Shown here: piece by piece, positions 30,520-48,045 of the stretch
Layout of the letters: each line of letters opens with the position of its first letter
Numbering within the stretch: the first letter of the stretch is position 1
Virus record (IMG/VR): IMGVR_UViG_3300035436_000036
Source: a virus
Length of the DNA: 64,000 nucleotides
Direction: 5' to 3' (one strand)
Position numbers and translations under genes: made by a program
The notes under the pieces: model-generated
Seen by the model: the letters and a program-made list of their open reading frames with translations, nothing else
What the model was told of the DNA's origin: nothing
Databases searched by the model: none

Positions 30520-30522
30520 TTG

Positions 30523-30560
30523 TTGACCTTTTTGTGAAAATGTCCGATAAGGATATATCA
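30523..30560 (+). promoter_or_regulatory. Early promoter cassette copy
   Basis: GTTGACCTTTTTGTGAAAATGTCCGATAAGGATATATC + conserved leader CAAGAGTGAAAAGGAAG. Confidence 0.6.
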
Positions 30561-30582
30561 AGAGTGAAAAGGAAGATTGGTT

Positions 30583-30801
30583 ATGAAATACGATTTTGAA
30601 CAAGTTGCTGACGCTTTCGCGTTTCTCGACACTCTTCGTGAGTTTGGTAGCGTCAATATGTTTGGTGCTGCAACCTACGTAGCAGAAGAACTGGGTCACG
30701 ATAAAGCGACCTCACGTGAACTCGTCTCAATGTGGATGAAGTCGTTTGATGGTGAAGTGACCGCCGAAGATCGCGCGCGGTCGTTTGGAGAAATGGTGTG
30801 A
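30583..30801 (+). CDS. Hypothetical protein (73 aa)
   Basis: ATG after conserved leader. Confidence 0.4.
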   Translation: MKYDFEQVADAFAFLDTLREFGSVNMFGAATYVAEELGHDKATSRELVSMWMKSFDGEVTAEDRARSFGEMV

Positions 30802-31421: not shown

Positions 31422-31597
31422 TGAGTAAAATGATTTTAAGTTTTCTTATACTGTTTGCATTGGCGTTCGTCGGTGTGAAATTCTTTGTTGCTGCAACTGG
31501 TAGAGAAAAAATTCAGTTGATTAAATCACTGGGTTATAGTATGGTAATAACAGTAGTGGTGATGTCCATCATTGCTGGTATCGTTATCTTGTTTTAA
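31421..31597 (+). CDS. Small membrane protein (58 aa, two TM segments)
   Basis: ORF not in track; ATGA overlap with previous gene; hydrophobic. Confidence 0.3.
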   Translation: MSKMILSFLILFALAFVGVKFFVAATGREKIQLIKSLGYSMVITVVVMSIIAGIVILF

Positions 31598-31609
31598 AGG
31601 AAGTATATT

Positions 31610-32407
31610 ATGAATCGTATTGCAAAAGCTGCCGTCCTCGTTGGTCTGATGGCCACTGCTTCGGCTTGTACTCGTATCGAAACTGGTGAAGTTGGTGTTC
31701 GTCGTTCGTTCGACAAGACCATTGAAACTACAGAGCTGATGCCTGGATCTGTTAACCAGACTATGTTTGGTGATGTTATGACCTTCCCAACGAAGGACGT
31801 TCAGGTTGACGTATCGGACTTGACCCCTTTGGCGTCAGACAATTCGACAGTCGCTGACTTCGATATGGCTGTCATCTACTCGATCAATCCTGGTTCGGTT
31901 GCCGAACTGTATATCGAGAAGAACCGTGGCTTCCATGCCGAGACCGAAGAAGGTGATACTCTGTTGATGTATAACTACATTCGTCAGCTTGGTCGTAACG
32001 CTGCCTACAAGGTTGCACGTAAGTACGAGTCGTTGAAGATGGCTGACAACCGTGCAGAGATCGAACAGCTCGTTCGTCAAGAGATTGTCAACCAACTTGC
32101 TTCTGAGAAGCTTGATGGATCGATTGCAATCTCGCAGGTTCTGGTTCGTCAGATCAAGCCTGCAGCGAACATTGTAGCCTCGGCCAACCAGCTGGTGCAA
32201 GCGCAGAATGCTGAAAAGCAGAAGCAAGTAGAAGTTCGTACAGCGAAGTTGGAAGCAGAACGTATTGCTGCTCTTAACGCCAACGCTGGTGCAACGAAGT
32301 ACATGGAAGCAACTGCTCTCGTGACTATCGCAGAAGCTGTTAAGGAAGGCAAGGTCTCGACGATCATCGTTCCTTACGACTTCAAGGGAATTGTCAACGT
32401 AAAATAA
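31610..32407 (+). CDS. SPFH/band-7 (prohibitin/HflK-like) lipoprotein
   Basis: Lipobox ...TASAC; IETGEVGVRRSF SPFH start; Ala/Glu/Gln coiled-coil tail. Confidence 0.65.
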   Translation: MNRIAKAAVLVGLMATASACTRIETGEVGVRRSFDKTIETTELMPGSVNQTMFGDVMTFPTKDVQVDVSDLTPLASDNSTVADFDMAVIYSINPGSVAELYIEKNRGFHAETEEGDTLLMYNYIRQLGRNAAYKVARKYESLKMADNRAEIEQLVRQEIVNQLASEKLDGSIAISQVLVRQIKPAANIVASANQLVQAQNAEKQKQVEVRTAKLEAERIAALNANAGATKYMEATALVTIAEAVKEGKVSTIIVPYDFKGIVNVK

Positions 32408-32409
32408 AT

Positions 32410-32438
32410 GTTGACTTAAATTGGAAAAAGAGTATAAA
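32410..32438 (+). promoter_or_regulatory. Promoter for tRNA cluster 2 (TTGACT N17 TATAAA)
   Basis: ~10 nt upstream of tRNA-Asp 5' end. Confidence 0.6.
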
Positions 32439-32447
32439 TAAAACTCT

Positions 32448-32523
32448 GGACTCGTAGCTCAATTGGGAGAGCACCGCACTGTCACTGCGGAGGTAGTGGG
32501 ATCGAAACCCATCGAGTTCGCCA
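32448..32523 (+). tRNA. tRNA-Asp (GTC)
   Basis: Cloverleaf by eye. Confidence 0.7.
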
Positions 32524-32529
32524 GTTTGT

Positions 32530-32604
32530 GTCGGTGTGATGTTAATGGTAGCATGACGGTCTCCAAAACCGTTCGTCAAGGTTCGAATCCTTGCACCGAT
32601 GCCA
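32530..32604 (+). tRNA. tRNA-Trp (CCA)
   Basis: Cloverleaf by eye. Confidence 0.65.
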
Positions 32605-32629
32605 GACTTGTTCTTTCTCATTGTTGTTC

Positions 32630-32705
32630 GCGTCTGTAGCTCAGTTGGCAGAGCACTCCCCTGATAAGGGAGAGGTCGCAGGGTCAGGACCTGCCAGACG
32701 CACCA
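32630..32705 (+). tRNA. tRNA-Ile (GAT)
   Basis: Cloverleaf by eye; atypical T-loop GTCAGGA. Confidence 0.6.
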
Positions 32706-32761
32706 TTATGGGGTTGCTACCTAATAAGCACGCGAGGGGCCACGGTTAGCTCCTCAACATT

Positions 32762-32851
32762 GGAAGCGTGTCAGAGTGGTCGATTGATCTGGTCTTGAAA
32801 ACCAGCGTAGGCGCGAGTCTACCGTGGGTTCGAATCCCACCGCTTCCTCCA
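32762..32851 (+). tRNA. tRNA-Ser (TGA), type II
   Basis: Long variable arm, T-loop TTCGAAT. Confidence 0.7.
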
Positions 32852-32852
32852 T

Positions 32853-32927
32853 GCGGACGTAGCTCAGTGGTAGAGCTTCTCGTTGCCAACGAGAAGGTCG
32901 TGGGTTCGAATCCCATCGTCCGCTCCA
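32853..32927 (+). tRNA. tRNA-Gly (GCC)
   Basis: Cloverleaf by eye. Confidence 0.7.
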
Positions 32928-32929
32928 AT

Positions 32930-33004
32930 GGCCCGGTCGTCTAATGGCTAGGACACCGCTCTTTCACAGCGGAGAAGAGGGATCGAAACCCTTTCGGGCT
33001 ACCA
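32930..33004 (+). tRNA. tRNA-Glu (TTC)
   Basis: Cloverleaf by eye. Confidence 0.65.
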
Positions 33005-33010
33005 GATTTA

Positions 33011-33098
33011 GGAACGTGGGCAGGACGGTAATGCAACGCACTGCTAATGCGTACAACCTGTAATGGGTTGACAGGGTTCGACTCCCTGACGTTCCGCC
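33011..33098 (+). tRNA. tRNA-Ser (GCT), type II
   Basis: Long variable arm, T-loop TTCGACT. Confidence 0.7.
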
Positions 33099-33269
33099 AA
33101 GTTTATGGAGTCGTGAACACGGTAATGGTCGATCGCAGCGTACAGGGGTGTTCGGGGGCGATTGGCAACTCCGCCAAGATGAGGGAAACGCTAGGGCAAT
33201 GTCAGACGGTGCCTGCGTAGCGGGTGTCGTGAGGTGCTGGGTAACCGGCGGGGTCTGACACGAGTTTAT
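33099..33269 (+). ncRNA. Unassigned structured RNA segment inside tRNA operon (possible stable small RNA like T4 species 1/2 RNAs, or degenerate tRNAs)
   Basis: ~170 nt between tRNA-Ser and tRNA-His; GTCAGAC...GTCTGAC inverted repeat; both halves start with AGTTTATGG like tRNA leaders; no convincing cloverleaf. Confidence 0.3.
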
Positions 33270-33345
33270 GGTGGTCGAGGTGTTAATGGATACATGCTGG
33301 ATTGTGAATCCGGAGTTGCGGGCTCGATACCCGTCGATCACCCCA
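33270..33345 (+). tRNA. tRNA-His (GTG) with G-1
   Basis: Extra 5' G paired to discriminator C; T-loop CTCGATA. Confidence 0.65.
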
Positions 33346-33346
33346 T

Positions 33347-33422
33347 GGGGATATAGTCCAACGGCAGAGACAGGGCACTTAAAATGCCTCCAGCGTGAGT
33401 TCGAATCTCACTATCCCTACCA
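33347..33422 (+). tRNA. tRNA-like, anticodon TAA, with short (type I) variable arm
   Basis: Good acceptor/T arms (GTGAG TTCGAAT CTCAC), anticodon loop CTTAAAA; UAA normally belongs to type II tRNA-Leu. Confidence 0.5.
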
Positions 33423-33531
33423 GAATTTAGTAGACAGTGGGGCCTTCAGAAATGATTGCTACTAATAGCTCACCTTAATGGTCGGTACACCACGGTAAGG
33501 AGCAACCCACCAAACTTTTTTAAAATAACTG

Positions 33532-33570
33532 TTGCCTTTTTCGAAAATATGTCCTATAAGGATATATAAG
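33532..33570 (+). promoter_or_regulatory. Early promoter cassette copy (TTGCCT variant)
   Basis: ACTGTTGCCTTTTTCGAAAATATGTCCTATAAGGATATATAAG. Confidence 0.5.
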
Positions 33571-33591
33571 ATGAAGAAAAAGGAATTGGTT

Positions 33592-33795
33592 ATGGAAGTT
33601 TTTGTTTTGATGGGTGCGATGGATCACGATGCACATTACGTTCTTGGTGTTTATGCTTCTGAACAAGAAGCTGTAGATGCCTTGGGTGTTTACCTTCGTG
33701 ACCTTGATGAATCTTGGCATGATCGTTATTATGTTGATCGCCGTGTGCTCGGTGCACATGCGGAATACGATTCCGATCCTTTTCGACATCTGTAA
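33592..33795 (+). CDS. Hypothetical protein (67 aa) between tRNA clusters
   Basis: ATG after AAAAAGGAATTGGTT leader (same pattern as 30583 gene). Confidence 0.4.
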   Translation: MEVFVLMGAMDHDAHYVLGVYASEQEAVDALGVYLRDLDESWHDRYYVDRRVLGAHAEYDSDPFRHL

Positions 33796-33802
33796 GTTTA
33801 AT

Positions 33803-33878
33803 GGACGATTAGCTCAGTCGGTAGAGCGCGGGACTCTTAATCCTTAGGTCATAGGTTCGAATCCTATATCGTCTACCA
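33803..33878 (+). tRNA. tRNA-Lys (CTT)
   Basis: Cloverleaf by eye. Confidence 0.65.
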
Positions 33879-34093
33879 AGTTCTATGTTGGGTATCACAT
33901 AGGTGTGTCCTGAGGGAGTCATGACCCAAGGGAGAATGGAGAAAATCTCATATAGGATGCATAATGCATAACCATCTTATGATTATGAGAGGATGCGATA
34001 ATCCCCGCCCGACGCCAAATTATCCGTACCATTTTATAGGAGGTTGTATATGTCACTGCGGGAAGCAAGAAGCTAGGTAAAAATTTTAAAAAG

Positions 34094-34357
34094 ATGATTA
34101 CTCTGTATGAGTATTTCGGTAAAGAGTGTGGTGGTCTAGATTGGAGCGATAGTGCTCTCTATGATCTATACGTATTCGAGTCTACTGGTAAAGGTAGCAT
34201 AAAGCCGAATAACGGATATGCATATGGCAAACACACTATAGATATAACAATCTCTATGTGGAAAGAGGACTTAGATAAGACCCTCTGGCTACATGAATTA
34301 TATCAAGATCCTAACCTACCAGATTGGTGGTTGGATAAAGTTTTTAAGGGTCGGTAA
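34094..34357 (+). CDS. Hypothetical protein (87 aa)
   Basis: ORF between tRNAs; W-rich C-terminus. Confidence 0.4.
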   Translation: MITLYEYFGKECGGLDWSDSALYDLYVFESTGKGSIKPNNGYAYGKHTIDITISMWKEDLDKTLWLHELYQDPNLPDWWLDKVFKGR

Positions 34358-34432
34358 AGCCGGTGGCTCCGGCAGTCAGACTGTAAATCTGATCCGTTCG
34401 CGGGGGAGGATCGATACCTCACTGACCCACCA
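34348..34432 (+). tRNA. tRNA-Tyr (GTA), type II
   Basis: Anticodon stem TCAGA/TCTGA, loop CTGTAAA, long variable arm; 5' end overlaps stop of upstream ORF. Confidence 0.6.
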
Positions 34433-34440
34433 AGTTTTAA

Positions 34441-34516
34441 TGCCCTTTGGTGTAATTGGCAACACGTCTGATTTTGATTCAGAAGAGTCCAGGTTCGAGC
34501 CCTGGGAGGGCATCCA
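34441..34516 (+). tRNA. tRNA-Gln (TTG)
   Basis: Cloverleaf by eye. Confidence 0.7.
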
Positions 34517-34525
34517 AAAATAAAT

Positions 34526-34558
34526 GTTGACTTATATCTAAAAATGAGATATATAATA
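34526..34558 (+). promoter_or_regulatory. Promoter internal to tRNA cluster 3 (TTGACT ... TATATAAT)
   Basis: Upstream of tRNA-Pro. Confidence 0.5.
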
Positions 34559-34567
34559 TACTAGTAA

Positions 34568-34643
34568 CGGGAAGTAGCTCAGGTGGGAGAGCGCGTGGTT
34601 TGGGACCACGAGGTCGCAGGTTCGAGCCCTGTCTTCCCGACCA
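34568..34643 (+). tRNA. tRNA-Pro (TGG)
   Basis: Cloverleaf by eye. Confidence 0.7.
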
Positions 34644-34647
34644 TTTT

Positions 34648-34723
<76 letters not shown>

Positions 34724-34730
34724 GAATAAA

Positions 34731-34804
34731 GCGGGCTTGGCGTAGAGATAACGTACCTGGCTTCCACCCAGGGGTCAAGGGTTTGATTCCCTTAGTCCGC
34801 ACCA
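34731..34804 (+). tRNA. tRNA-Gly (TCC)
   Basis: Cloverleaf by eye. Confidence 0.7.
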
Positions 34805-34810
34805 GAATAC

Positions 34811-34885
34811 GGCACAGTAGCTCAGTGGTAGAGCGACGGTCTCATACGCCGTCAGCCGGTGGTTCGAATCCATCCTGTGTCACCA
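34811..34885 (+). tRNA. tRNA-Met/Ile2 (CAT), second copy
   Basis: Cloverleaf by eye. Confidence 0.7.
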
Positions 34886-35033
34886 TTTAGGAATGTGAAT
34901 ATGAGAAGCGAGTCTGCAGAATGTGTGATGTATGTACCCGACACTCCTTTAAACAGGGCTGCGTTTACAGACGAAACGGTTTTGGCAGAGATATATAAAG
35001 TTTCGAATATTAAAATTGTGTTTAAAGATAATG

Positions 35034-35108
35034 GGGGATTAGCTCAGTTGGGAGAGCGATTGCTTTGCAAGCAATAGGTCAACGGTTCGATCCCGTTATC
35101 CTCCACCA
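35034..35108 (+). tRNA. tRNA-Ala (TGC)
   Basis: Cloverleaf by eye; G3-U70 present (GGGGGAT...ATCCTCC). Confidence 0.7.
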
Positions 35109-35397
35109 AGTTTTGTAGCGCCTAAGGCATAGCCCGAAGGATAACCAAAGGTTCACCGTATTGGGGGCTCGCTACAAAAAAATATAGACCACCTCGGCTG
35201 AACCCGTGAAGTGATAAAGACATTGTTGCAACATTGTTTTTATCTGGGAAGATTGCAACGTCCGGAAGTAAGCAATCAAGGCACACTGTAGGTGGTCACT
35301 CACATTGACTCCGACCTCTGGTTTTAAGTCCCGACCTGAAATGACAGGCGGTAACATATGTGTCCTAGGAAACGCATTTGTTTGGGAGTTTTTATTT

Positions 35398-35473
35398 GCC
35401 TTTGTAGCTCAGTTGGTAGAGCAGTGGATTGAAGATCCACGTGTCGGGGGTTCGACTCCCTCCAAAGGCACCA
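35398..35473 (+). tRNA. tRNA-Phe (GAA)
   Basis: Cloverleaf by eye. Confidence 0.7.
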
Positions 35474-35592
35474 CAAGTTTGGGACTAAGCGGTGTGAATA
35501 GGGAACCCGCTGAATATGGACTGCTAGTAAAACTGTTAAAACTCACCTATGAGAAGCAAGGCATAAGATCCCAAAACATTATGCTCCAATGG

Positions 35593-35675
35593 TGGAATGG
35601 TAGACACGCTAGTCTTAGGAACTAGTGCCTAGTGCGTGGGGGTTCGAGTCCCTCTTGGAGTACCAAGTTTAATGC
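35593..35675 (+). tRNA. tRNA-Leu (TAG), type II
   Basis: Long variable arm, discriminator A. Confidence 0.7.
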
Positions 35676-35683
35676 CGGATTAG

Positions 35684-35758
35684 CTCAGTGGTAGAGCGCC
35701 TCGTTTACACCGAGGATGTCGGGAGTTCGACCCTCTCATCCGGTACCACGCCCTCGTA
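35684..35758 (+). tRNA. tRNA-Val (TAC)
   Basis: Cloverleaf by eye. Confidence 0.7.
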
Positions 35759-35759
35759 G

Positions 35760-35836
35760 CTCAACTGGATAGAGCTCTTGATTACGAATCAAAAGGTTGC
35801 AGGCTCGAATCCTGCCGAGGGCACCAATTAACTGTT
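35760..35836 (+). tRNA. tRNA-Arg (ACG)
   Basis: Cloverleaf by eye. Confidence 0.65.
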
Positions 35837-35844
35837 GACATTAA

Positions 35845-35873
35845 CAGCTATAAGTACTATAAAGAATTATGAA
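35845..35873 (+). promoter_or_regulatory. Promoter (TTGACA N17 TATAAA) upstream of tRNA-Asn
   Basis: sigma70-like spacing. Confidence 0.5.
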
Positions 35874-35879
35874 GTTTAT

Positions 35880-35954
35880 TCCCCAGTAGCTCAGTGGTAG
35901 AGCAGGTGACTGTTAATCACCTGGCCGGTGGTTCGAACCCATCCTGGGGAGCCA
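35880..35954 (+). tRNA. tRNA-Asn (GTT)
   Basis: Cloverleaf by eye. Confidence 0.7.
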
Positions 35955-36381: not shown

Positions 36382-36972
36382 ATGGTAGAAACTGTTTCAA
36401 TTAAACGTCATTGGGATAAGTACGATGACAATACTCACGAACTGCCTGAGGTTGTTCCTAGTGTAGTATTCAAGACTCGTGTCCGCGATGACTCAATCGA
36501 AGGCCCCAATCCTTACCGCTGGGAAGACAAGACTAGCTTTGACTACTTCGGTGGCAAGCGTGTCATCCTCTTCTCACTCCCTGGCGCATTCACCCCCACA
36601 TGTTCCACATACCAGCTTCCGGATTTCGAGAATAGCTACGAAGCATTCAAGAGCTTTGGTATCGATGAGATCTATTGTGTCTCTGTCAACGATGCCTTTG
36701 TGATGAACTGCTGGGCTCAACAGCAAGGTGTAGAGAACGTCAAGATGATTCCAGATGGTTCTGGCAAATTCACTCGCAAGATGCAGATGAATGTCTACAA
36801 AGACAACCTTGGGTTCGGTGAGCGCTCATGGCGTTATGCATGCCTTATCGAGAATGGTAAGATCCTCAAGTGGTTCATTGAACCAGGTATGGAAGACAAT
36901 TGCGAAGAGGATCCATACGGCCGTACGGATCCAGCAAAGATCCTCGAGTATGTCGAGGCGTTCTATGGCTGA
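36382..36972 (+). CDS. Peroxiredoxin (Prx5-like, 1-Cys/atypical 2-Cys)
   Basis: PGAFTPTCS peroxidatic-Cys motif. Confidence 0.85.
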   Translation: MVETVSIKRHWDKYDDNTHELPEVVPSVVFKTRVRDDSIEGPNPYRWEDKTSFDYFGGKRVILFSLPGAFTPTCSTYQLPDFENSYEAFKSFGIDEIYCVSVNDAFVMNCWAQQQGVENVKMIPDGSGKFTRKMQMNVYKDNLGFGERSWRYACLIENGKILKWFIEPGMEDNCEEDPYGRTDPAKILEYVEAFYG

Positions 36973-37346: not shown

Positions 37347-37458
37347 TCTGCTATCATACAATGTTCCCAGTAGCAACATTACTGTAACATATGGGCCTAC
37401 AACGAGTAGGCAAGGGTATACGATCCCAACTGACTTCAGTTTCGATCAGTATTAATTA

Positions 37459-37490
37459 GAGGGGGTGGCTTCGGTCACCCCCTTTTTTTA
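37459..37490 (+). terminator. Rho-independent terminator
   Basis: GGGGGTGGCTTCGGTCACCCCC + TTTTTTT. Confidence 0.8.
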
Positions 37491-37496
37491 TAAATA
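37489..37496 (+). promoter_or_regulatory. T4-type late promoter TATAAATA driving the 37.5-43.1 kb module
   Basis: Exact TATAAATA 6 nt upstream of ATG 37502, immediately after terminator. Confidence 0.5.
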
Positions 37497-37501
37497 CTAT
37501 C

Positions 37502-37789
37502 ATGAACTATGACGTTGTTTTCAAACTAATTGCTGATGTCGGGTTCCCCATCGCAGCTGCACTGCTCGCAGGAGTATTCGTATACTTCGTCATCAATTAC
37601 ATACTTGAAAGTGTCGTGAAAGCCATTAAAGGCATGCAGGGTATTATTATGGGACTCGATAACAGAGTCAAGACAATGAACCATGATATCATCCGTGTTG
37701 ATGCCGTAGTAAGTTCCGCTCTAGGTCTTAAACCAGATCTAGATCGCATCGCTCGAGCTGACGGGAAGAACGATGCGAGAAAAGACTAA
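37502..37789 (+). CDS. Small N-terminal-TM protein, paralog A (holin-like?)
   Basis: Tandem paralog pair (VFKLIADVGFPIAAALLAGVFVYFV vs IAELIKQYGFPIVAAVGMGYFVWFI). Confidence 0.5.
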   Translation: MNYDVVFKLIADVGFPIAAALLAGVFVYFVINYILESVVKAIKGMQGIIMGLDNRVKTMNHDIIRVDAVVSSALGLKPDLDRIARADGKNDARKD

Positions 37790-38052
37790 TGGATGTAAAT
37801 GTAATTGCTGAACTTATAAAGCAATATGGGTTTCCGATCGTCGCCGCTGTGGGGATGGGATACTTCGTATGGTTTATCTACAAGTTTGTTACTGATAAGT
37901 TAATGCCGCTGATAGGTGAGACCAATGTCATTCTGATTGCTCTCATTGATCGCGTTCGCATGCTGGATAACGATCTAATAAGATTGAACCAGAAGGTGAA
38001 TGTCGTACTGCAGATAAAGGAGGATCACAGTGACCATAAATCTAAAGATTGA
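37789..38052 (+). CDS. Small N-terminal-TM protein, paralog B
   Basis: Tandem duplicate of previous gene; TAATG overlap. Confidence 0.5.
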   Translation: MDVNVIAELIKQYGFPIVAAVGMGYFVWFIYKFVTDKLMPLIGETNVILIALIDRVRMLDNDLIRLNQKVNVVLQIKEDHSDHKSKD

Positions 38053-38126
38053 GATCCTCAAAGTATTCTCGCTTGAACTTAGCCTTTCTTCTGATAAAGA
38101 AATCAAACTAAAGAAAGACAAACAAG

Positions 38127-38564
38127 ATGAGAAAGAGTCTGCTCCTGCTACTCCTAGTAAGCAGCCCGCTCCAAGCAAGTGAGATAGTATTTGGATTTAA
38201 GAACCCTTCGTTCTCTGGCAACAATGCCGGAGCGCAATGGCTGACTATTGAGAATCAAGAGACTACTCGTAAAAAGGCTATAGCGGATAAGATCGAGGCC
38301 GAACTCAAGGCTCAGGCTCTTGAAGAGAAGAACTCGATCCTCAATCGCTTTATGAACAACCTACAGTCTCGTATCTACTCGCAGCTTGCTCAACAGCTGA
38401 CAAACAATCTGTTTGGTGAGATGGGTGGCGAAGAGGGTGAGTTCGGTCTTGAAGGCAACTCTATCAAGTACAAGAAGACTGACACAGAGATCACACTATC
38501 AATTACTGATGCGGCTGGTAACACTACCGAGATTATAATTCCGACGAGTGGCTTCAAATGGTAA
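38127..38564 (+). CDS. csgF: CsgF-like curli assembly protein
   Basis: Signal peptide then FGFKNPSFSGNNAGAQWL (E. coli CsgF FQFRNPNFGGNPNNGAFLL) and ITLSITDAAGNTTEIII (LQLNVTDRKTGQTSTIQV). Confidence 0.75.
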   Translation: MRKSLLLLLLVSSPLQASEIVFGFKNPSFSGNNAGAQWLTIENQETTRKKAIADKIEAELKAQALEEKNSILNRFMNNLQSRIYSQLAQQLTNNLFGEMGGEEGEFGLEGNSIKYKKTDTEITLSITDAAGNTTEIIIPTSGFKW

Positions 38565-39349
38565 GGAATTGGTTTCTCTTACTAATACCGCTGTTGCTGG
38601 GCGGGTGCATGTCAATGGGTTCTGGTGTGCTTGACATGCAGGATCGACCTGAACTTAGCCGCACACTGACAAAGGAATTGTATACTCTGAGCCCACCTAA
38701 GCAACAGGCTGTAGTTGCGGTGTATGACTTTCCGGACCTTACAGGTCAAAGAAGAGATAAGGATGGCATTGCCAGCATCTCGACTGCAGTGACTCAGGGT
38801 GGCACAGCGCTTCTAATCTCTGCACTGACAGATGCAGGTGGTGGTTCGTGGTTCAGAGTTGTTGAACGCAATCGCGTTGACGATCTTGCAAAGGAACGTC
38901 AGATTGTTAGACAGACTCGTGAAGAGTATATTGGAGAAGGAGCAAATAAGCTAGAGCCAATGCTCTTTGCTGGTTTGATTATCCAGGGTGGAATCATTGG
39001 CTATGATAGCAACATCCAGACTGGCGGGGCAGGCGCAAGGTATCTGGGCATTGGTGGAACAACAGTGTATCGTAAGGACCAAGTGGTAATTGCGTTGCGT
39101 GGTGTCAATACAAACACAGGGGAAGTGATCCTCAACGTACAGGTTTCCAAGACCGTGCTTTCGGTTGGCAGAGACCTTTCGGTTTTTAAGTTTGTTGATG
39201 TAGGAACAAAGCTGGTAGAAGCGGAAGCCGGCATGACTGAGAATGAAGCTAACACAATGGCAGTTAAGATGGCCATAGAGGAAGCAGTATTACAGTTAAT
39301 CAAACAAGGTATCGATAAGGGATACTTTAGCTATAGGGAAGAAGGATGA
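38558..39349 (+). CDS. csgG: CsgG-like curli secretion channel lipoprotein
   Basis: Lipobox LLGGC; AVVAVYDFPDLTGQ; IIGYDSNIQTGGAGARYLGIGGTTVYRKDQVVIALRGVNTNTGEVIL strongly similar to E. coli CsgG IIGYESNVKSGGVGARYFGIGADTQYQLDQIAVNLRVVNVSTGEIL. Confidence 0.9.
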   Translation: MVRNWFLLLIPLLLGGCMSMGSGVLDMQDRPELSRTLTKELYTLSPPKQQAVVAVYDFPDLTGQRRDKDGIASISTAVTQGGTALLISALTDAGGGSWFRVVERNRVDDLAKERQIVRQTREEYIGEGANKLEPMLFAGLIIQGGIIGYDSNIQTGGAGARYLGIGGTTVYRKDQVVIALRGVNTNTGEVILNVQVSKTVLSVGRDLSVFKFVDVGTKLVEAEAGMTENEANTMAVKMAIEEAVLQLIKQGIDKGYFSYREEG

Positions 39350-40044
39350 TGAAAAAGGCACTAGCACTTTTCATTATGTCTCTGATGACGAGTTCGTTAG
39401 CTTATGCACAGTCGACGACTAACTCGATTTTTATCGACCAAGTTGGTAACGGTAGTACAATTACAGTTACCCAGAAGGGTCAGAACAATAGAATTGGTTC
39501 TGAACAAAACCGTGTTGTGATTGAAGGCAACAACCAGACAATCACTTCTACGCAAGAAGGTAATAATAACCTTATTCAGGGTTCTATTACACAGGGCGAT
39601 AACGTCAGCATCGATTCGACCGTGACAGGTGACAACAATACAGTTACCTATGACATGGGTGATGCAGCAAGCGTTGCAGGTTCAACTAAGACACTCGCGG
39701 TGACAGGCGATTCGAACAACCTGACATTCAACCAGGGCACAGCAGCTTCGGCTACAGGGGCTACACAGAACATCACGTTCACCGGTGATACCAATACCTA
39801 TACCTCGACAATCAATACGGATGACGTAGTCAATGATATGACTATTGCTGGTGATGGTAACACGATCACAATGGTGCAAGATGGCACAGCTGGTAAGAAT
39901 GTTGAAATGGTGCTTACAGGCAGCACAAACAATGTTACTGTAAATCAAAAGAGCACAAACAATGTTGATACGATCAAGATCAATAGCACAAGCACTGGTA
40001 GCACTCTTGTTATTAATCAGTGCAACGCCGGCGGCCCTTGCTAA
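39346..40044 (+). CDS. Secreted curlin-repeat (CsgA/CsgB-like) protein candidate
   Basis: Signal peptide; ~20-residue imperfect repeats with Q-x-G-x-N-N / N-x-[VI]-T-x-x-Q cores, Gln/Asn/Thr/Gly-rich; encoded directly after csgF-csgG. Confidence 0.5.
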   Translation: MMKKALALFIMSLMTSSLAYAQSTTNSIFIDQVGNGSTITVTQKGQNNRIGSEQNRVVIEGNNQTITSTQEGNNNLIQGSITQGDNVSIDSTVTGDNNTVTYDMGDAASVAGSTKTLAVTGDSNNLTFNQGTAASATGATQNITFTGDTNTYTSTINTDDVVNDMTIAGDGNTITMVQDGTAGKNVEMVLTGSTNNVTVNQKSTNNVDTIKINSTSTGSTLVINQCNAGGPC

Positions 40045-41053
40045 TATTGGCAACGTAACGCAGGCGCGTGGTAATAGCGAAGTCGTGAAGAAAGCCACTA
40101 AGGTTCCTACACGACTTCAGCTACCTATTGCTAAGTTAGATAGAGTACAGACTGGAAACGGTAGAGTCGAGATCAAGTTTATCGACGACTCTACCGTCAG
40201 GGTAACAGAACATTCGAAGCTCGTGATCGACGACTTCGTCTATAGTGGTAAGCCATCCACTTCAAGAATGGCTCTCAAGTTTGCCTCTGGCACTGCTAGA
40301 TTCGCTACCGGTCAGTCTGGTAAGATGAACAAAAGCAACATCAATCTCAGAACACCCACTGCTACAATTGGTGTTCGTGGAACAGACTTCGCAGCAACCG
40401 TAGACGACTTTGGCAAAAGCCTTATCATTCTCCTACCCGAGCCAGATGGATCCGTGGGAGAAATCACTGTGTCTAATGCTGCGGGGTTCGTTATTCTCAC
40501 GAAAGCCTTCCAGGCCACCATCGTGTCGACAGCAGATAGTAGACCATCTCGTCCCGTGATCCTCAACCTGACACTGGATCAGATTGATAACATGCTGATT
40601 GTATCCCCAGCAGAAGAGGTTGATATGGGCGAAGATGCTGGCGAGACAAGATCAAATATCTTGGACTTATCAGAGCTCGATGTAGACTTCCTGGCTAAAG
40701 ATGATCTGAAAGAAGATCAGCTGGCGAGTTCGGATCTAGACATCAATGCAATCGATACCAACTTCCTTGGAGAAGACTTTCTCGATGATAGTCTTGCTGG
40801 AGGTGATTGTATCACACGTGAAGGTACGAAGCTATGCGGCACAATATTCGGTCTTGATAGCGTAACACAAATCACAACGATTCTATCTGGAGATTCAATC
40901 CGTCTCGTAAGAACTCTCGGCACTACTGTAGATGTCAGGTTCAAGAAGGACGAAAACAAAACTTTATACATAGATAGTAGTGGCAAGTCATTTTTGATCG
41001 AAATAAACGATCCAGCTGGGGGTACAATAATCAATGTCAAACAAAGTGACTAA
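39962..41053 (+). CDS. Secreted FecR-domain protein with acidic C-terminal region
   Basis: Clear signal peptide ALVALLLLISATPAALA; FecR-type core (TVRVTEHSKLVID ... TPTATIGVRGTDF); start overlaps previous gene by 83 nt. Confidence 0.6.
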   Translation: MLIRSRSIAQALVALLLLISATPAALANIGNVTQARGNSEVVKKATKVPTRLQLPIAKLDRVQTGNGRVEIKFIDDSTVRVTEHSKLVIDDFVYSGKPSTSRMALKFASGTARFATGQSGKMNKSNINLRTPTATIGVRGTDFAATVDDFGKSLIILLPEPDGSVGEITVSNAAGFVILTKAFQATIVSTADSRPSRPVILNLTLDQIDNMLIVSPAEEVDMGEDAGETRSNILDLSELDVDFLAKDDLKEDQLASSDLDINAIDTNFLGEDFLDDSLAGGDCITREGTKLCGTIFGLDSVTQITTILSGDSIRLVRTLGTTVDVRFKKDENKTLYIDSSGKSFLIEINDPAGGTIINVKQSD

Positions 41054-43091
41054 GGTCTTATTGTCCCCATGGCTGGCTCTCCTGACATTTGCTTTGCTAT
41101 TCGCAGTCAAGGTTCAGGATCCGTTCCTAGTAGAATCTGCTAGGCTTAAGTTCTATGATTACATTATGATCGACAAACCAGTCGAATCAAAAGACATAGT
41201 CGTTGTAAACATAGGGGAGAAAGCAATTGAAAAATATGGCCAGTGGCCTTTCCCGAGGGAAGTACATGCTAAGATTATTAGCGACCTTTATAGGGCAAAC
41301 GCTGGTCTCGTTGGTAGCACTATACTTATGCCTGAGCCTGATCGTATGGGGACTGATAGAGTTCTTGTCGATGTCCTGAAACAGGCTCCGGTTGTTCTCA
41401 GTCAGACTGTGAGCGACTCTTGTTCACGGGCAGGTGCGACAATTCGGAAGACAGGCGTTGCCGTAATCGGCGATGGAGAACCAACTGAATTTCTTCCTCA
41501 ATATCCGTGCGTTCTAAGTAATATCGCACCTCTTCAAGAAGCCGCAGCCGGTGTTGGGATAACATCAACCCTACCTGAGGCTGATGGGGTCGTGAGGCGA
41601 GTTCCTCTTCTAGCTCAATCTGAAAACGAATACTACCCCGCATTTGCTCTAGAGCTTCTACGTGTAGCTGCTGGAGATCCTTCGTATCAAGCGAAGATAA
41701 ATCAGACTGGTGTTGAAGCATTACGGATTCCTCAATTCGATACTATTAAGACGGATGAATATGGTCGCATATTTATTAACCCAAATTATAAGTTCAAAGA
41801 GATTGAACTGGGTGTTCCTACAACTGTAGACTTGAATCAAAAGATTGTAGTTTTAGGTGTAACTGCTGCCGGCATTCAGAATCCACTAGCAACTCCTCAA
41901 GGAGCTCAGTATCCTCAGAATGTACAAGCAAGCATCCTTCAGACACTACTAGACGGTGACTCTGTATCGATTCCACTTTGGGCTTCTTCTTTGGATTTGG
42001 CACTGCTATTATTCCTTACTATTGGTATCGTTGTCCTATCAAAGGTGAGATACTCTGTTGTATGGATCATGATATTGATCGGTGGGTATGTTTACCTACC
42101 TGTCTATTTATTCGCCAGTCAAAAGCTGCTACTTGACATTTCTTTCAATGTCTTCGCTGTTCTTATAATTTACCTACACATCTATACAGTAAAGTTCATC
42201 TCTGAATTCCTACAGAAGCAGCAGATCAAGAAGCAGTTCGGAACGTATCTCTCACCTGACCTGGTCGCAAAGCTCCAACGCAATCCTGAGCTTCTGGCTC
42301 TCGGTGGCGAAGAGCAAGAGCTGTCAATCATGTTCACAGACGTTCGTGGATTCACAACGATCTCAGAGCACTATGGTAAGGACGTTCAAGGTCTGACAAA
42401 GATCATGAACCGCTACATGACGGCTATGACAAAGGCGATCCTCGAGAACAACGGAACGCTGGACAAGTACATTGGTGACGCTCAGATGGCATTCTGGAAC
42501 GCACCTGTCGCAAACGAAAAACATGCTCTGGATGCTGTAAGAACATCCTTTGAGATGATGAAAGCCCTGGAGACATTTAATGCAGAAATTAAAGAAGAAG
42601 GCGTTCCAGCTTTCGGTATGGGTCTTGGTATTAACACTGCCACTGTGGTGGTTGGCAATATGGGTAGCGATCAGCGCTTTGATTATACTTGCCTGGGTGA
42701 CGGGGTTAATCTGGCTGCTCGTCTCGAAGGTCAGTCCAAGCCTTATGGCGTCAAACTCGTCCTCGGGTCTCGCACAGCGGACCTGGTTAGGGATGTATAC
42801 CAAGTAGTCGAGCTTGATCTAATAGCTGTTAAAGGTAAGACCGAACCGGCACGCATCTATACCGTGGTGGAGAACTTCGACACATACTCGCAGGTGATGC
42901 ATGATACGTTCCTGGATCTGTATCGCAAGGGCGATTGGGCCAGAGCGATAAAGCAGGCTCAAGAACGCAAGGCACAGGCCTGGGGCGGTGAGCTTGAGGC
43001 ATACTATGATATGATGATCGAGCGCAGCGCAGATATGAAGGCTGCTGGTGTAAAGAATTTTGATGGAATCTACAGAGCGACTTCCAAATAA
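41034..43091 (+). CDS. CHASE2-sensor class III adenylate/guanylate cyclase
   Basis: N-terminal TM + periplasmic CHASE2 region (DIVVVNIGEKAIEKYGQWPFPREVHAKII), three TM helices, cyclase domain with FTDVRGFTTISE ... KYIGDAQMAFWNAP ... GDGVNLAARLE. Confidence 0.85.
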   Translation: MSNKVTKVLLSPWLALLTFALLFAVKVQDPFLVESARLKFYDYIMIDKPVESKDIVVVNIGEKAIEKYGQWPFPREVHAKIISDLYRANAGLVGSTILMPEPDRMGTDRVLVDVLKQAPVVLSQTVSDSCSRAGATIRKTGVAVIGDGEPTEFLPQYPCVLSNIAPLQEAAAGVGITSTLPEADGVVRRVPLLAQSENEYYPAFALELLRVAAGDPSYQAKINQTGVEALRIPQFDTIKTDEYGRIFINPNYKFKEIELGVPTTVDLNQKIVVLGVTAAGIQNPLATPQGAQYPQNVQASILQTLLDGDSVSIPLWASSLDLALLLFLTIGIVVLSKVRYSVVWIMILIGGYVYLPVYLFASQKLLLDISFNVFAVLIIYLHIYTVKFISEFLQKQQIKKQFGTYLSPDLVAKLQRNPELLALGGEEQELSIMFTDVRGFTTISEHYGKDVQGLTKIMNRYMTAMTKAILENNGTLDKYIGDAQMAFWNAPVANEKHALDAVRTSFEMMKALETFNAEIKEEGVPAFGMGLGINTATVVVGNMGSDQRFDYTCLGDGVNLAARLEGQSKPYGVKLVLGSRTADLVRDVYQVVELDLIAVKGKTEPARIYTVVENFDTYSQVMHDTFLDLYRKGDWARAIKQAQERKAQAWGGELEAYYDMMIERSADMKAAGVKNFDGIYRATSK

Positions 43092-46322: not shown

Positions 46323-46356
46323 AGAAGGGGGCCTTTTGAGCCCCCTTCCCATTTTA
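46323..46356. terminator. Bidirectional rho-independent terminator between convergent sHSP and endolysin genes
   Basis: GAAGGGGGCCTTTTGAGCCCCCTTC with T-runs on both strands. Confidence 0.75.
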
Positions 46357-47538
46357 TCCCCAGTTGGCGTACTGTTTGGTCTTCTTAAGCCTGTCATCCA
46401 GGCCGTGAGTTCCACCATTAACACGCTTTGTGATCTGAGTGATGATTGCATCCGTTACACCCTTGTCTGCAATCGCTAGCAGACCATTCTTACGGAAGAA
46501 CCACAATGCAGACTCGAAAGCCAACTCCCCAACCACAAGATCAGGATTCGTTAAAACGTCAGGGCGTCCAATGTCAGCGGCAAAGGCTGTATAGTTCGCT
46601 TTCCCGGTCAGTTGGATCGGGCCTCGACCACGATACTTCCAGCCATCTCCAGAGGCTTCTGGTCCGTTCCCCATCCGATTAGCATACACTTTGTTTGCAA
46701 TCTTCTCTGGCTTGCGAGCATAACCTGCTGTCGAAGCAATCGTTGGGAAGTACTTCTTGAAGATCCCATTGAGACCCTTGTCCGAGTAGTTAAGGTTTTC
46801 TGAAAAGACTTTGAAGCCACCCGACTCGTGAGCACACTGACCAAAGAAGTGAGCTGCTTGAGTGTTTGATAGCTTGAAGAAGTCACGAGCTGCCTTATAA
46901 GTACCAGGACCCCACTTACCATCGGCAGTGATGCCACACTTAGTTTGGAGAGCCGCTAATGGACCAAGACCCGCTGCAACTGGAGCTGCCTTTGGAGCAG
47001 CCGCTGACGGCTTCGGAGCAGCTTGACCAGCTACTTGAGGAGCTCCTGCTTCGCGAGTCGTTGATGGATCGAAATCCTTCACAGTAGTGTATACAGTGCC
47101 ACCAGCCTTCGACTTAGAAGCGATCATGCGAACCTTACGGTTGCCACCTTCCTTCTTGATCGAAGCGTGAACCCAACCAGAGTTCTTATCACCAGCAGTG
47201 TAGAACTCGAGGATGACTTGGTCGAACTCTAGATTGTCACCAATCCAGTCTGCAACTGTCTTGTTATCAACACCCTTGACTTCGAAGTCAATTGCCTGAC
47301 CATTAACGTGCTGTGAGGTCTTTGAACCACCAACAGCTCTGTTAACAGCAGGAGCGCGGTAAGAAGAGTTGATCGTTACCGGACCAAACTTTGCACGGAC
47401 TGGCTCGAGGATCTTCTCGCAGCAGTAGCGCATGTTCTCAATGTGCTCTGGGGTTGGAGTGTTCGAAAGTCCCAGTTTCTTGGCAGTAGGAGATACGGTC
47501 ATCTCGCTAAGTTTAAAGTGTTCTGTTAGTTGTGTCAT
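46354..47538 (-). CDS. Multidomain endolysin: M15 peptidase + peptidoglycan-binding domain + GH19 muramidase/chitinase-like domain
   Basis: N-term FKLSEMTVSPTAKKLGLSN...SQHVNGQAIDF (M15); middle CGITADGKWGPGTYKA; C-term GQCAHESGGF...YRGRGPIQLTGKANY (GH19). Confidence 0.85.
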   Translation of the reverse strand: MTQLTEHFKLSEMTVSPTAKKLGLSNTPTPEHIENMRYCCEKILEPVRAKFGPVTINSSYRAPAVNRAVGGSKTSQHVNGQAIDFEVKGVDNKTVADWIGDNLEFDQVILEFYTAGDKNSGWVHASIKKEGGNRKVRMIASKSKAGGTVYTTVKDFDPSTTREAGAPQVAGQAAPKPSAAAPKAAPVAAGLGPLAALQTKCGITADGKWGPGTYKAARDFFKLSNTQAAHFFGQCAHESGGFKVFSENLNYSDKGLNGIFKKYFPTIASTAGYARKPEKIANKVYANRMGNGPEASGDGWKYRGRGPIQLTGKANYTAFAADIGRPDVLTNPDLVVGELAFESALWFFRKNGLLAIADKGVTDAIITQITKRVNGGTHGLDDRLKKTKQYANWG

Positions 47539-47548
47539 GATTTAATCC

Positions 47549-47998
47549 TTAGAATGGTCCATGGTCTTCGTCTGAGTCAAGATACTTGTCGACAGCTGCC
47601 ATCATTTTGATTTCGTTGTCTGTTTCGATTGACTCGGCTTGTGCGTTGATTACGTGAGCTTCTGCAAGAGCCTTATGATCGGTCTTGCCGAGCTCTTGAG
47701 TCTTTACGTTTGGATCAAGCTCAGAAACTTTCATTCCCATCATCGTAGCGAAGGCTCCGACAAAGGCACCGATGATCATTGAGAACGCTGGGCCGATGAT
47801 CTTGAAGATTTCGTTATTATCGATTAGCTCGTTTGGCATAAACATACCAATGAGGAAGATGAATACAACTGCTAGCATGATAGACGACAGCACAAGTGTG
47901 ACCATCTTCATGATAGAGAGTTGGATCTTACCCTTCTCGAGTTCGAGTTGCTCCATCGATGTGATTGGTGGGGTAGATAAAAAAGATAGTAAGGACAT
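47549..47998 (-). CDS. Putative holin / lysis membrane protein
   Basis: Immediately upstream of endolysin on same strand; 2-3 TM segments; RBS GAGGT. Confidence 0.4.
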   Translation of the reverse strand: MSLLSFLSTPPITSMEQLELEKGKIQLSIMKMVTLVLSSIMLAVVFIFLIGMFMPNELIDNNEIFKIIGPAFSMIIGAFVGAFATMMGMKVSELDPNVKTQELGKTDHKALAEAHVINAQAESIETDNEIKMMAAVDKYLDSDEDHGPF

Positions 47999-48017
47999 AC
48001 AATACCTCAATTAGTGG

Positions 48018-48045
48018 TTGACATAATTCGAAAAGTATTTATAAT
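48018..48045 (+). promoter_or_regulatory. Early promoter (TTGACA N16 TATAAT) for DNA polymerase
   Basis: Canonical sigma70 elements 22 nt upstream of ATG 48067, RBS GGAG. Confidence 0.65.
48036..48043 (-). promoter_or_regulatory. Late promoter TATAAATA on minus strand for holin-endolysin, embedded in divergent early promoter of gp43
   Basis: Reverse complement of TATTTATA at 48036-48043. Confidence 0.45.

Follow-up and report, generated by a model that had tools for sequence, protein, structure and literature searches.

Curli genes in phages have been discussed previously (PMC7029224, PMC9004378), and a full pelagiphage cluster of small proteins, CsgF, CsgG, CsgA/B, FecR and adenylate cyclase was described in 2022, together with its global distribution and metatranscriptome expression (PMC9599517). 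The cultured phages HTVC008M (GenBank KC465899) and Melnitz (MZ577097) are annotated with CsgF, CsgG, curlin, FecR and cyclase genes in the same order. The original prediction for the locus studied here held that such genes were unreported in T4-like phages and that the curli and sensor halves had never been combined; neither claim survives, as these publications and both cultured phages already have curli genes, and the two halves stand together in both annotations and in the full cluster of PMC9599517. Each half also has bacterial counterparts. Alphaproteobacterial curli loci (Aureimonas pAU20a, Azospirillum, Sulfitobacter) share the order of csgF, csgG and downstream subunits, and FecR genes adjoin cyclases of the same architecture in Campylobacterota AC-PDE-FecR-TPR clusters (PMC9239204), in the S. 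meliloti CyaD1/CyaD2/CyaK clusters (PMC5498481) and in Ensifer, Paracoccus and Ruegeria replicons.

The window analysed, a 64,000-nt stretch of IMG/VR virus record IMGVR_UViG_3300035436_000036, encodes a T4-like myophage backbone (sheath, portal, MCP, gp43 polymerase and gp41 helicase) and, at 37489-43091, a module of seven tightly packed + strand genes following a late-promoter motif (Table 1). Every predicted module ORF lies on this strand where it had been placed, the peptides quoted are all present, and each gene identification holds in profile and sequence searches, with matches to the Pfam CsgG, CsgF, FecR, CHASE2 and Guanylate_cyc models. The original count of six genes disagreed with its own list of seven, which is the number found, and the two halves, described as fused, consist of genes that adjoin or overlap. 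The cassette is probably a divergent member of the ‘T8SS-FecR-adenylate cyclase’ cluster known from SAR11/OM43 phages, in which two bacterial modules have been joined in phages behind a T4-type late promoter; the identity of its parts is well supported, while its biological pay-off is not established.

Table 1 Features of the module and of its upstream boundary.
Feature	Position	Strand	Evidence
Intrinsic-terminator-like GC-rich hairpin and T-run	37458..37485	+	12-bp stem, 7 GC pairs, 4-nt loop, then TTTTATAAAT
T4-type late-promoter motif TATAAATA	37489..37496	+	Exact; 5 nt 5′ of sm1 ATG
sm1, 95-aa bitopic membrane protein	37502..37789	+	phrog_18771, E=1.5e-30
sm2, 87-aa sm1 paralogue	37789..38052	+	phrog_18771, E=9.3e-31
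CsgF homologue, signal peptide	38127..38564	+	Pfam CsgF E=5.6e-23, full length
CsgG homologue, outer-membrane lipoprotein channel	38558..39349	+	Pfam CsgG E=8.4e-49
Secreted curlin-repeat (CsgA/B-type) beta-solenoid subunit	39346..40044	+	Repeat composition, strand spacing
Secreted FecR-domain protein	39962..41053	+	Pfam FecR E=7.3e-12
CHASE2-sensor class IIIb adenylate cyclase, membrane	41034..43091	+	Pfam CHASE2 E=9.8e-40; Guanylate_cyc E=2.4e-18

Gene content and order match those of the pelagiphage/OM43 cluster, which is likewise carried by T4-like phages (HTVC008M, Melnitz and the pelagimyophage MAGs of PMC7029224; PMC9599517). The module proteins nevertheless share only 25-49% identity with those of HTVC008M, and the backbone differs: the polymerase is ≤48% identical to that of any cultured phage, and gp32, gp33 and thyX are all missing upstream of the module in the window, which has 24 genes for tRNAs and one for a peroxiredoxin instead. 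The locus has the short architecture, without a second curlin-repeat gene between FecR and cyclase. A search of phage databases for this neighbourhood recovered it in IMG/VR as well as in cultured phages. The cyclase is encoded by at least 464 IMG/VR loci; the order sm1-sm2-CsgF-CsgG-curlin-FecR-cyclase is kept in all of the best 80 of these with enough flank, and it is seen again in >60 viral contigs that are independent of one another and in cultured phages of two lineages. Two features are added by the present analysis: the genes from CsgF to FecR are exchanged together as one cassette, and the module is passed among phages whose backbones are very distant.

Mis-assembly of bacterial curli and cyclase genes onto phage DNA, or contamination, would fit the clear bacterial homologues of the module genes and the fact that the nearest ‘genome’ matches are MAG contigs, but the bins of these contigs are taxonomically inconsistent, and wherever such a contig is long enough it holds the complete module of the phage type, together with the phage-specific sm1 and sm2. 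GC content does not shift within the region or at its junctions, the module stands behind a phage late promoter, complete genomes of cultured phages contain it, and independent contigs carry the same flanking phage genes (u1/u2 and d1-d3 in relative L003; d1-d3 at 90-97% in L050). We regard a chimera as next to impossible and the module as phage-borne, as originally assumed.

The motif TATAAATA occurs nine times in the window against 1.27 expected (0/100 shuffles reach nine), with seven of the nine copies intergenic and 5′ of genes, those for tail sheath and major capsid among them. Among relatives, 42 distinct upstream regions were compared; 26 hold an exact copy, with a spacing to the first ATG of exactly 5 nt in 16 cases and 4-8 nt in 23, and the motif is likewise upstream of the module in Melnitz. 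The predicted late promoter at 37489 is thus backed by an exact match, by enrichment and by position, and its conserved placement 4-8 nt from the first ATG is a further addition to earlier descriptions. The 5-nt spacing to the sm1 ATG implies that the first cistron is leaderless or nearly so. Judging from the motifs, a phage sigma factor would transcribe the operon from TATAAATA late in infection, and the terminator-like hairpin with its T-run, which has analogues at the same position in relatives L003 and L065, probably closes the preceding transcription unit just before the module. The exact motif is present in only 26/42 of the distinct upstream regions, which speaks against the late-promoter reading.

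The operon is headed by two module-specific small inner-membrane paralogues. sm1, which is present only in module-carrying phages, has a conserved GFPI motif, a conserved LDNRVKxMNHDxIRxD helix and one TM segment, its single hydrophobic stretch (residues 13-31); sm2 is 33% identical to it (alignment A4) and always adjoins it in relatives. The designation of sm1 as ‘HK’ dates from PMC9599517. No kinase domain was found in sm1, and all 150 of its best matches are 48-154 aa long; the published ‘histidine kinase’ label of the small proteins lacks support, a point newly raised here.

A different role for these proteins is implied by the lysis-timing device of Buchholz et al. 2022 (PMC9004378), in which CsgG, with or without CsgF, serves as a secretin, a pinholin analogue or a gated pore; once open, it would depolarise the envelope or make it permeable and so bring about lysis, with sm1/sm2 holin/antiholin-like and the cyclase as timer. 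The late promoter before the module, the bitopic and module-specific nature of sm1 and sm2, the changed constriction residues of CsgG and a weak match of sm2 to a holin PHROG (E=3.3e-4, N-terminal 20 residues only) are compatible with this published hypothesis. However, the holin similarity is not significant at the family level, and CsgG is an outer-membrane lipoprotein, which makes depolarisation of the inner membrane impossible. CsgF retains its plug motif, which binds within the CsgG channel, contrary to any drift of this protein, a dedicated secreted CsgA-type substrate, needless for a pure lysis pore, is always there, and a separate endolysin-like gene with its own late promoter lies apart from the module (46354-47538). 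We consider lysis timing unlikely.

By sequence, the curli half is an alphaproteobacterial-style curli system with a CsgG lipoprotein channel, CsgF and a CsgA/B-type beta-solenoid subunit. CsgG matches E. coli CsgG over its full length (E=3e-46) and is 44-53% identical to alphaproteobacterial CsgG, as near as to pelagiphage CsgG; its lipobox is LLGGC, and G15 and C17 are invariant among phage homologues. In the constriction loop it has K/S/I where E. coli CsgG has Y51/N55/F56, and its gating and the passage of substrates may be different as a result. CsgF is alignable with E. coli CsgF, FQFRNPNFGGNPNN included, and has the conserved N-terminal CsgG-plug motif FGFKNPSFSGNN. The mature curlin-repeat protein consists to 59% of N/Q/T/S/G; its ~16 strands recur about every 11-12 residues, and a Cys pair stands at its C-terminal end. 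The module encodes none of CsgE, CsgC/H and CsgD, as in the pelagiphage cluster. CsgE and CsgD are also missing from the alphaproteobacterial loci, but these carry csgH, which the phage module lacks, show neither FecR nor a CHASE2 cyclase nor sm1/sm2 up to 8 kb away and, unlike the phage copy, are not placed behind a phage late promoter. In E. coli, CsgE is required for efficient curli secretion, and its lack in the module counts against an export reading.

The signal peptides suggest that CsgF, the curlin subunit and the FecR protein would cross the inner membrane via Sec, and the lipobox and conserved plug motif that CsgG would be lipidated, reach the outer membrane and form a secretion channel with CsgF. 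The exported curlin subunit might then form amyloid-like fibres on the infected cell, and a cell made sticky or coated in this way could aid host capture or bar superinfection. Long-type relatives have a second secreted curlin-repeat protein, fused in HTVC008M to a PA14 adhesin-type domain, which we count in favour of adhesive fibres; no clumping was seen in Melnitz-infected cells (Buchholz et al., PMC9004378).

The sensor half is a standard bacterial envelope-sensor pair of a periplasmic FecR-domain protein and a CHASE2 class IIIb adenylate cyclase, in line with the original prediction and with the adjoining genes of the bacterial clusters, whose cyclases are 28-33% identical over the full length. 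In those clusters the pair is accompanied by genes for TPR, phosphodiesterase or cNMP-binding proteins and not by curli genes; the phage version is without such companions. The FecR protein comprises a signal peptide (hydrophobic segment at residues 1-19), a FecR domain (60-149) and, joined to it by an acidic linker, a C-terminal domain that is variable, with region-wise conservation as part of the evidence, and has NCBIfam similarity to Leptospira Lsa33/LipL45. In the cyclase, a TM segment (residues 7-25) precedes the periplasmic CHASE2 domain, a TM cluster (317-335, 365-383) and the cytoplasmic catalytic domain.

An import channel or iron sensing has also been proposed, with an ungated CsgG admitting nutrients, cofactors or siderophores and FecR as a ferric-citrate-type regulator (PMC7029224, PMC9599517). 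The FecR domain and the lack of an encoded CsgE gate agree with this, but where FecR proper has a cytoplasmic anti-sigma domain and a TM segment this protein has a signal peptide, FecI and FecA were not found among the scanned module and neighbouring ORFs, and bacterial FecR-domain proteins of this kind adjoin CHASE2 cyclases. Moreover, late expression gives nutrient import little time to pay, and the conserved curlin subunits and CsgF are left unexplained. We judge this reading improbable, and the assignment to a standard sensor pair rather than an iron regulator is also new here.

The best PDB matches of the cyclase are the adenylate cyclases CyaB (3r5g) and CyaC (1wc0). Among 84 homologues, D436, K478, D482 and R563 are conserved in all, N559 in 81 and T552 in 78, and from this conservation the enzyme is predicted to be catalytically competent. 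The Lys/Thr specificity pair makes cAMP its most likely product; with the structure matches, the cyclic-nucleotide signal originally predicted is thereby narrowed to one probable nucleotide. A PycC-like enzyme making a cyclic pyrimidine or decoy nucleotide against Pycsar/CBASS-type defence, with the curli genes as unrelated neighbours, would draw on the shared class III cyclase fold and on matches to PADLOC PycC models (best 85 bits). These models are matched by any class III cyclase, though, and the scores against true adenylate cyclases are higher (116 bits for CyaB). The phage enzyme is nearer to CyaB and CyaC than to PycC, with a conserved adenine-specifying Lys/Thr pair and a periplasmic CHASE2 sensor atypical of Pycsar, and it is strictly linked to T8SS genes in all loci examined; no cAMP receptor or cNMP-binding effector gene was found in the window, a weak test. 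Immune interference is therefore very improbable.

As an envelope sensor, the FecR-domain protein may modulate the periplasmic CHASE2 domain, and the resulting cytoplasmic cAMP could reprogramme host or phage physiology late in infection. In S. meliloti, CyaD1 without its CHASE2 domain produces cAMP constitutively (PMC5498481). The original idea of an outer-membrane channel and cyclic-nucleotide signal installed late is reasonable, its gene identities and promoter motif having been confirmed. The first 83 nt of the FecR ORF also belong to the curlin gene, and a start ~15 codons further downstream is chosen by some gene callers (alternative 348-aa call).

Seven genes are packed tightly on the plus strand behind a late-promoter motif, in the order sm1 and sm2 (two paralogous small membrane proteins), CsgF, CsgG, curlin, FecR and cyclase, with overlaps of 1, 7, 4, 83 and 20 nt and a single 74-nt gap in the ORF listing. 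The original prediction described this packing but spoke of six genes while itself naming seven. Its annotation is correct, with Pfam recovering CsgF (E=5.6e-23), CsgG (8.4e-49), FecR (7.3e-12), CHASE2 (9.8e-40) and Guanylate_cyc (2.4e-18), while the curlin-like protein falls slightly short of the Curlin_rpt threshold (20.1 bits, threshold 20.7). The CsgF and CsgG genes are adjacent on the phage genome, a curlin-repeat (CsgA/B) gene lies directly 3' of CsgG, a FecR-domain gene follows it and an adenylate cyclase forms the 3' end. The second curlin-repeat gene that separates FecR from the cyclase in long-type loci (n=41) is absent from the window, where these two genes overlap by 20 nt, as befits a short-type locus (n=29). 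Support for what each part is, is strong; secretion, fibre formation, cAMP synthesis and a benefit to the phage are inferred.

Coordinates of features in the window and in comparison loci (L-numbers denote individual module or comparison loci)
Sequence	Feature	Coordinates	Strand
Window	tRNA genes, three clusters	27940-35954	
Window	TATAAATA 5' of tRNA-Asp	32433	
Window	Peroxiredoxin gene	36382-36972	
Window	Terminator-like hairpin	37458-37485	
Window	TATAAATA of the module	37489	+
Window	Seven module genes	37502-43091	+
Window	sm1	37502-37789	+
Window	sm2	37789-38052	+
Window	Overlap of curlin and FecR genes	39962-40044	+
Window	Endolysin-like gene	46354-47538	-
Window	Small ORF upstream of endolysin-like gene	47549-48010	-
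Window	TATAAATA of the endolysin-like gene	48036-48043	-
L001 (HTVC008M)	Long-type extra gene	8495-9820	
L009	Long-type extra gene	6231-7685	
L016	Long-type extra gene	6800-7987	
L097 (bacterial)	Cyclic-nucleotide-binding protein	1-292	
L098 (bacterial)	Cyclic-nucleotide-binding protein	1212-3038	
L100 (GCA_902725375.1)	Module	8177-13734	
L100 (GCA_902725375.1)	Family-B polymerase	17715-20423	

The claim that such genes were unreported in T4-like phages, and never combined, was wrong, as the module is published and annotated in cultured phages. A tblastn search of deposited phages located CsgG and cyclase together in the Pelagibacter phage HTVC008M and in four Melnitz methylophages, and the GenBank records of HTVC008M and Melnitz annotate the same module gene order. 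In pelagimyophages a 'curli operon' was described by Zaragoza-Solas et al. 2020 (PMC7029224), who suggested that it serves as an uptake pore or for 'sibling capture', whereas Buchholz et al. 2022 (PMC9004378) put forward a pore that times lysis. A further study (PMC9599517, mSystems 2022) reported the complete cluster in podo- and myo-pelagiphages as one or two small 'HK' genes, CsgF, CsgG, CsgA/B and FecR, with an adenylate cyclase (AC) at the end and in some cases another CsgA/B before it. PMC9599517 noted that FecR, HK and AC are not part of bacterial curli secretion (T8SS) operons, inferred an alphaproteobacterial origin with cross-family transfer, and detected phage curli genes at every one of the 65 GOV2 stations, where they make up about 0.1% of viral proteins, and their expression in metatranscriptomes; it makes no mention of promoters or CHASE2. 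Phage-encoded curli systems are abundant in the ocean, and the window module is a divergent member of this known group. Its proteins are 25–49% identical to those of HTVC008M, megablast with the module DNA returned no close relative among deposited phages, and gp33, gp59, thyX and gp32, which lie upstream of the module in Melnitz and HTVC008M, are missing from the window (no gp33 homologue was found within its 64 kb). The window lineage broadens the known range of the module, which now takes in, besides SAR11 and OM43 phages, a T4-like lineage that is very divergent and a 347-kb phage contig.

The assignment to a T4-like myophage was upheld, with the window encoding tail sheath, portal, major head protein, gp43-type polymerase, gp41-type helicase and RNA ligase; no deposited phage has a polymerase more than 48% identical to that of the window, the top matches being Kyanoviridae. 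A chimeric assembly joining phage and bacterial DNA, a possibility named at the outset, was not borne out: GC content is flat over the region and the module recurs in independent viral contigs, with at least 464 viral loci confirmed to carry the cyclase (IMG/VR scan, cyclase alignment). Among the best 80 of these at least 464 loci compared by tblastn, the gene order of the window is found wherever the flank suffices. The window's own flanking genes are common to several contigs, for example those downstream of the module in L003 and L050 (identity up to 97%). A cyclase-alignment scan of a bacterial-genome collection gave 13 matches, all on short MAG contigs in bins of inconsistent taxonomy, and none in an isolate genome, the pattern-based scan reaching close relatives only. 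Those MAG contigs that are long enough carry the full phage-type module, which, given the inconsistent bins, makes them look like phage DNA that was probably mis-binned. These matches (L083, L086, L088 and others, in GTDB species-representative genomes) were binned as Bacteroidetes, Rhodobacteraceae, Flavobacteriaceae and Pirellulales.

The late promoter of the original prediction is supported by the distribution of its T4-type motif, TATAAATA, which occurs nine times in the window against 1.27 expected and lies just 5' of the module. Seven of the nine copies are intergenic and precede genes, including those of the tail sheath (43 nt) and the major capsid protein (34 nt). The module copy sits after a strong terminator-like hairpin and ends 5 nt from the first ATG, as against spacings of 25–250 nt at other late genes in the window. 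Of 42 distinct upstream regions compared in relatives (L003–L091), 26 have the motif 5' of sm1, at a distance of exactly 5 nt in 16 and of 4–8 nt in 23 of these 26, and one-mismatch variants occur at 5–6 nt in three further regions. As T4 late promoters have this box at about −13 to −6, the 5-nt spacing suggests that the first cistron is leaderless or nearly leaderless, without a Shine-Dalgarno sequence. The sub-lineage of L072, L074, L075 and L079 encodes sm1/sm2 3' of the cyclase on the other strand, behind a TATAAATA that serves them alone, so that they stay linked to the module even when not co-transcribed with it.

The two small proteins (87–95 aa, one TM segment each) are paralogues within one PHROG (phrog_18771, E about 1e-30), share homology with the pair of hypothetical proteins that precedes CsgF in HTVC008M and Melnitz, and are found only in module-bearing phages. 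The label 'HK' (sensor histidine kinase) used for them in PMC9599517 was rejected, as HisKA/DHp and HATPase_c domains are absent: no kinase domain matched in Pfam even at E<=10, and a PDB profile search returned no kinase, the matches being non-significant coiled coils. The best 150 of their 281 homologues among 1.84 billion representatives are all 48–154 aa long. A holin reading was also set aside, the N-terminal resemblance to holin or YvrJ being marginal.

The window CsgG matches E. coli CsgG from end to end (E=3e-46) and has the lipobox LLGGC, with Gly15 and Cys17 invariant among phage homologues; by homology and lipobox it is predicted to form a nonameric lipoprotein channel. Its constriction differs from that of E. 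coli, with Y51/N55/F56 replaced by K/S/I and the loop one residue longer. CsgF keeps the N-terminal CsgG-binding (barrel-plug) motif, FGFKNPSFSGNN aligning with FQFRNPNFGGNPNN of E. coli, which speaks against the proposal that CsgF of phages has lost its pairing with CsgG. Compared with canonical E. coli curli (csgBAC-csgDEFG), the module is missing the CsgE gate, the CsgC/H chaperone and the CsgD regulator, none of which was matched by any of the seven module proteins in Pfam or NCBIfam. In long-type loci the extra gene codes for another secreted curlin-repeat protein, whose N-terminal domain is globular; in HTVC008M this domain is PA14 (27.7 bits), joined to Curlin_rpt (33.1 bits). The protein looks like an adhesin-tipped curlin, which favours an adhesive-fibre function. 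The long-type proteins also show a Pro-rich linker after the globular domain, C-terminal curlin-like repeats and a conserved Cys motif at the end.

The cyclase has the canonical CHASE2 topology (CHASE2 at residues 21–330, TM segments at 7–25 and 317–383), and among solved structures it comes closest to the class IIIb adenylate cyclases CyaB and CyaC. The metal-binding D436 and D482, together with K478 and R563, are invariant in 84 of 84 full-length homologues, while the transition-state Asn N559 is kept in 81 and the specificity Thr T552 in 78 of the 84. The conserved catalytic residues and the Lys/Thr adenine-specifying pair predict an active, cAMP-forming enzyme. Interference with Pycsar defence is suggested by PADLOC matches to PycC, but these were judged generic to class III cyclases; in contrast to Pycsar (PycC plus effector), the module contains no effector and the cyclase has the Lys/Thr purine signature instead of pyrimidine specificity.

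The FecR domain invites a reading as iron regulation or import, with CsgG serving as the uptake pore proposed for pelagimyophages. However, the periplasmic FecR domain (residues 60–149) is the only part of the protein that matches, the N-terminus is signal-peptide-like (residues 1–19), and the cytoplasmic anti-sigma domain and TM segment of the FecR anti-sigma factor (FecIRA) are lacking. The scanned ORFs of the module and its neighbourhood include no sigma factor (FecI) or TonB receptor (FecA). The protein resembles Leptospira LipL45/Lsa33, and its AlphaFold model has a pLDDT of 31.9 on a shallow alignment. For many homologues in databases the gene call begins about 15 codons later than the FecR ORF, whose start overlaps the curlin gene end, and the complete signal peptide (MLIRSRS...AALA/N) is present only in the long form.

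Bacterial context, taken from an annotated plasmid collection because curlin and FecR homologue searches were saturated by phage-type homologues, offers a different partner for FecR. Bacterial CHASE2 cyclases are alike in architecture (28–33% identity), with a FecR-domain gene adjoining in Ensifer, Paracoccus and Ruegeria (three of three replicons inspected). Campylobacterota conserve a cluster in which FecR and TPR genes accompany those of a CHASE2 adenylate cyclase and a phosphodiesterase (PMC9239204), and S. meliloti CyaD1 without CHASE2 makes cAMP constitutively (PMC5498481). Since FecR stands beside CHASE2 cyclases in bacteria, the window FecR is most simply explained as a cognate partner of the cyclase in the periplasm rather than as an iron regulator. 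This ready-made bacterial sensor pair and the unfounded 'HK' label change the working hypothesis: envelope sensing coupled to cAMP, testable in two cultured systems, replaces iron regulation as the question to ask. Alphaproteobacterial curli loci share the csgF-csgG-subunits order but contain neither FecR nor cyclase within 8 kb, and CsgG and CsgF are absent from the inspected bacterial cyclase loci (both DNA-checked). The joining of the curli and FecR-cyclase modules is therefore phage-specific as far as tested, in agreement with PMC9599517. In two of the three bacterial loci (L097, L098) a cyclic-nucleotide-binding protein, in one case fused to a patatin-like phospholipase, is encoded a few kb from the FecR-CHASE2-cyclase pair, of which it could be a downstream effector. 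No counterpart was seen in the phage window, where a weak tblastn test for a cAMP receptor (E. coli CRP and two bacterial cNMP-binding queries) gave no match below E=1 within 64 kb.

Identity to the window is unevenly distributed along many long-type loci, at about 90% for sm1/sm2 and about 72–75% for the cyclase but just 22–44% for CsgF, CsgG, curlin and FecR. This middle block may have been swapped or may be evolving much faster. At L009, L016, L045, L059 and other long-type loci, sm1/sm2 and cyclase are 63–94% identical to those of the window. Identity of the FecR protein is 48–56% in its FecR domain but drops to 12–32% in the C-terminal half, and CHASE2 of the cyclase is near 79%; conserved FecR domain and CHASE2 together with a variable C-terminal half fit an adaptor role, which the FecR protein may play. 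In L100, a 346,700-bp phage contig, the module has 70–83% protein identity to the window but the family-B polymerase is only 26–31% identical, which points to whole-module transfer between very distant phage backbones. The module appears to be under late-promoter control and to be exchanged between unrelated phage backbones. In L100 the next gene after the cyclase encodes OMP_b-brl.

The evidence best supports reading the module as a self-contained late operon that would install a CsgG-CsgF channel and export a CsgA-type subunit forming surface fibres, while in parallel a FecR-modulated CHASE2 cyclase would produce cAMP. The original interpretation is partly supported, its gene identities and late-promoter motif having stood and its novelty not. 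A pore that times lysis would likewise suit a late-expressed channel, but the endolysin-like gene and the small ORF upstream of it lie behind their own minus-strand TATAAATA, so that lysis functions appear to be encoded apart from the curli module; this alternative, like import or iron regulation, Pycsar interference and a chimeric assembly, conflicts with specific observations. Building on the late-operon reading, the T8SS and cAMP halves could form one phage-specific signalling circuit with the FecR protein as periplasmic adaptor. The conserved FecR domain would dock on the conserved CHASE2 sensor, and its fast-evolving C-terminal half would sense either the CsgG/CsgF/curlin machinery swapped along with it or some cue that this machinery lets in. 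Late fibre secretion or envelope status would then trigger a cAMP pulse acting on lysis timing or host physiology, and the leaderless sm1/sm2 pair would belong to the control. With docking, readout, pulse and sm1/sm2 control all included, we offer this circuit tentatively and consider it rather unlikely. Coupling of T8SS to cAMP was not found at the bacterial loci examined and is not proposed in the publications found on the phage module. The function of the module is testable, and the window adds a divergent lineage to the phages that carry it.

Immediately upstream of the module region the window carries 24 tRNA genes, and a TATAAATA copy 8 nt 5' of tRNA-Asp suggests that tRNA expression is driven by a late promoter. 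The module is closely preceded by a peroxiredoxin gene (Redoxin/AhpC-TSA; phrog_2281 'peroxyredoxin antioxidant'), which several relatives also have near theirs.
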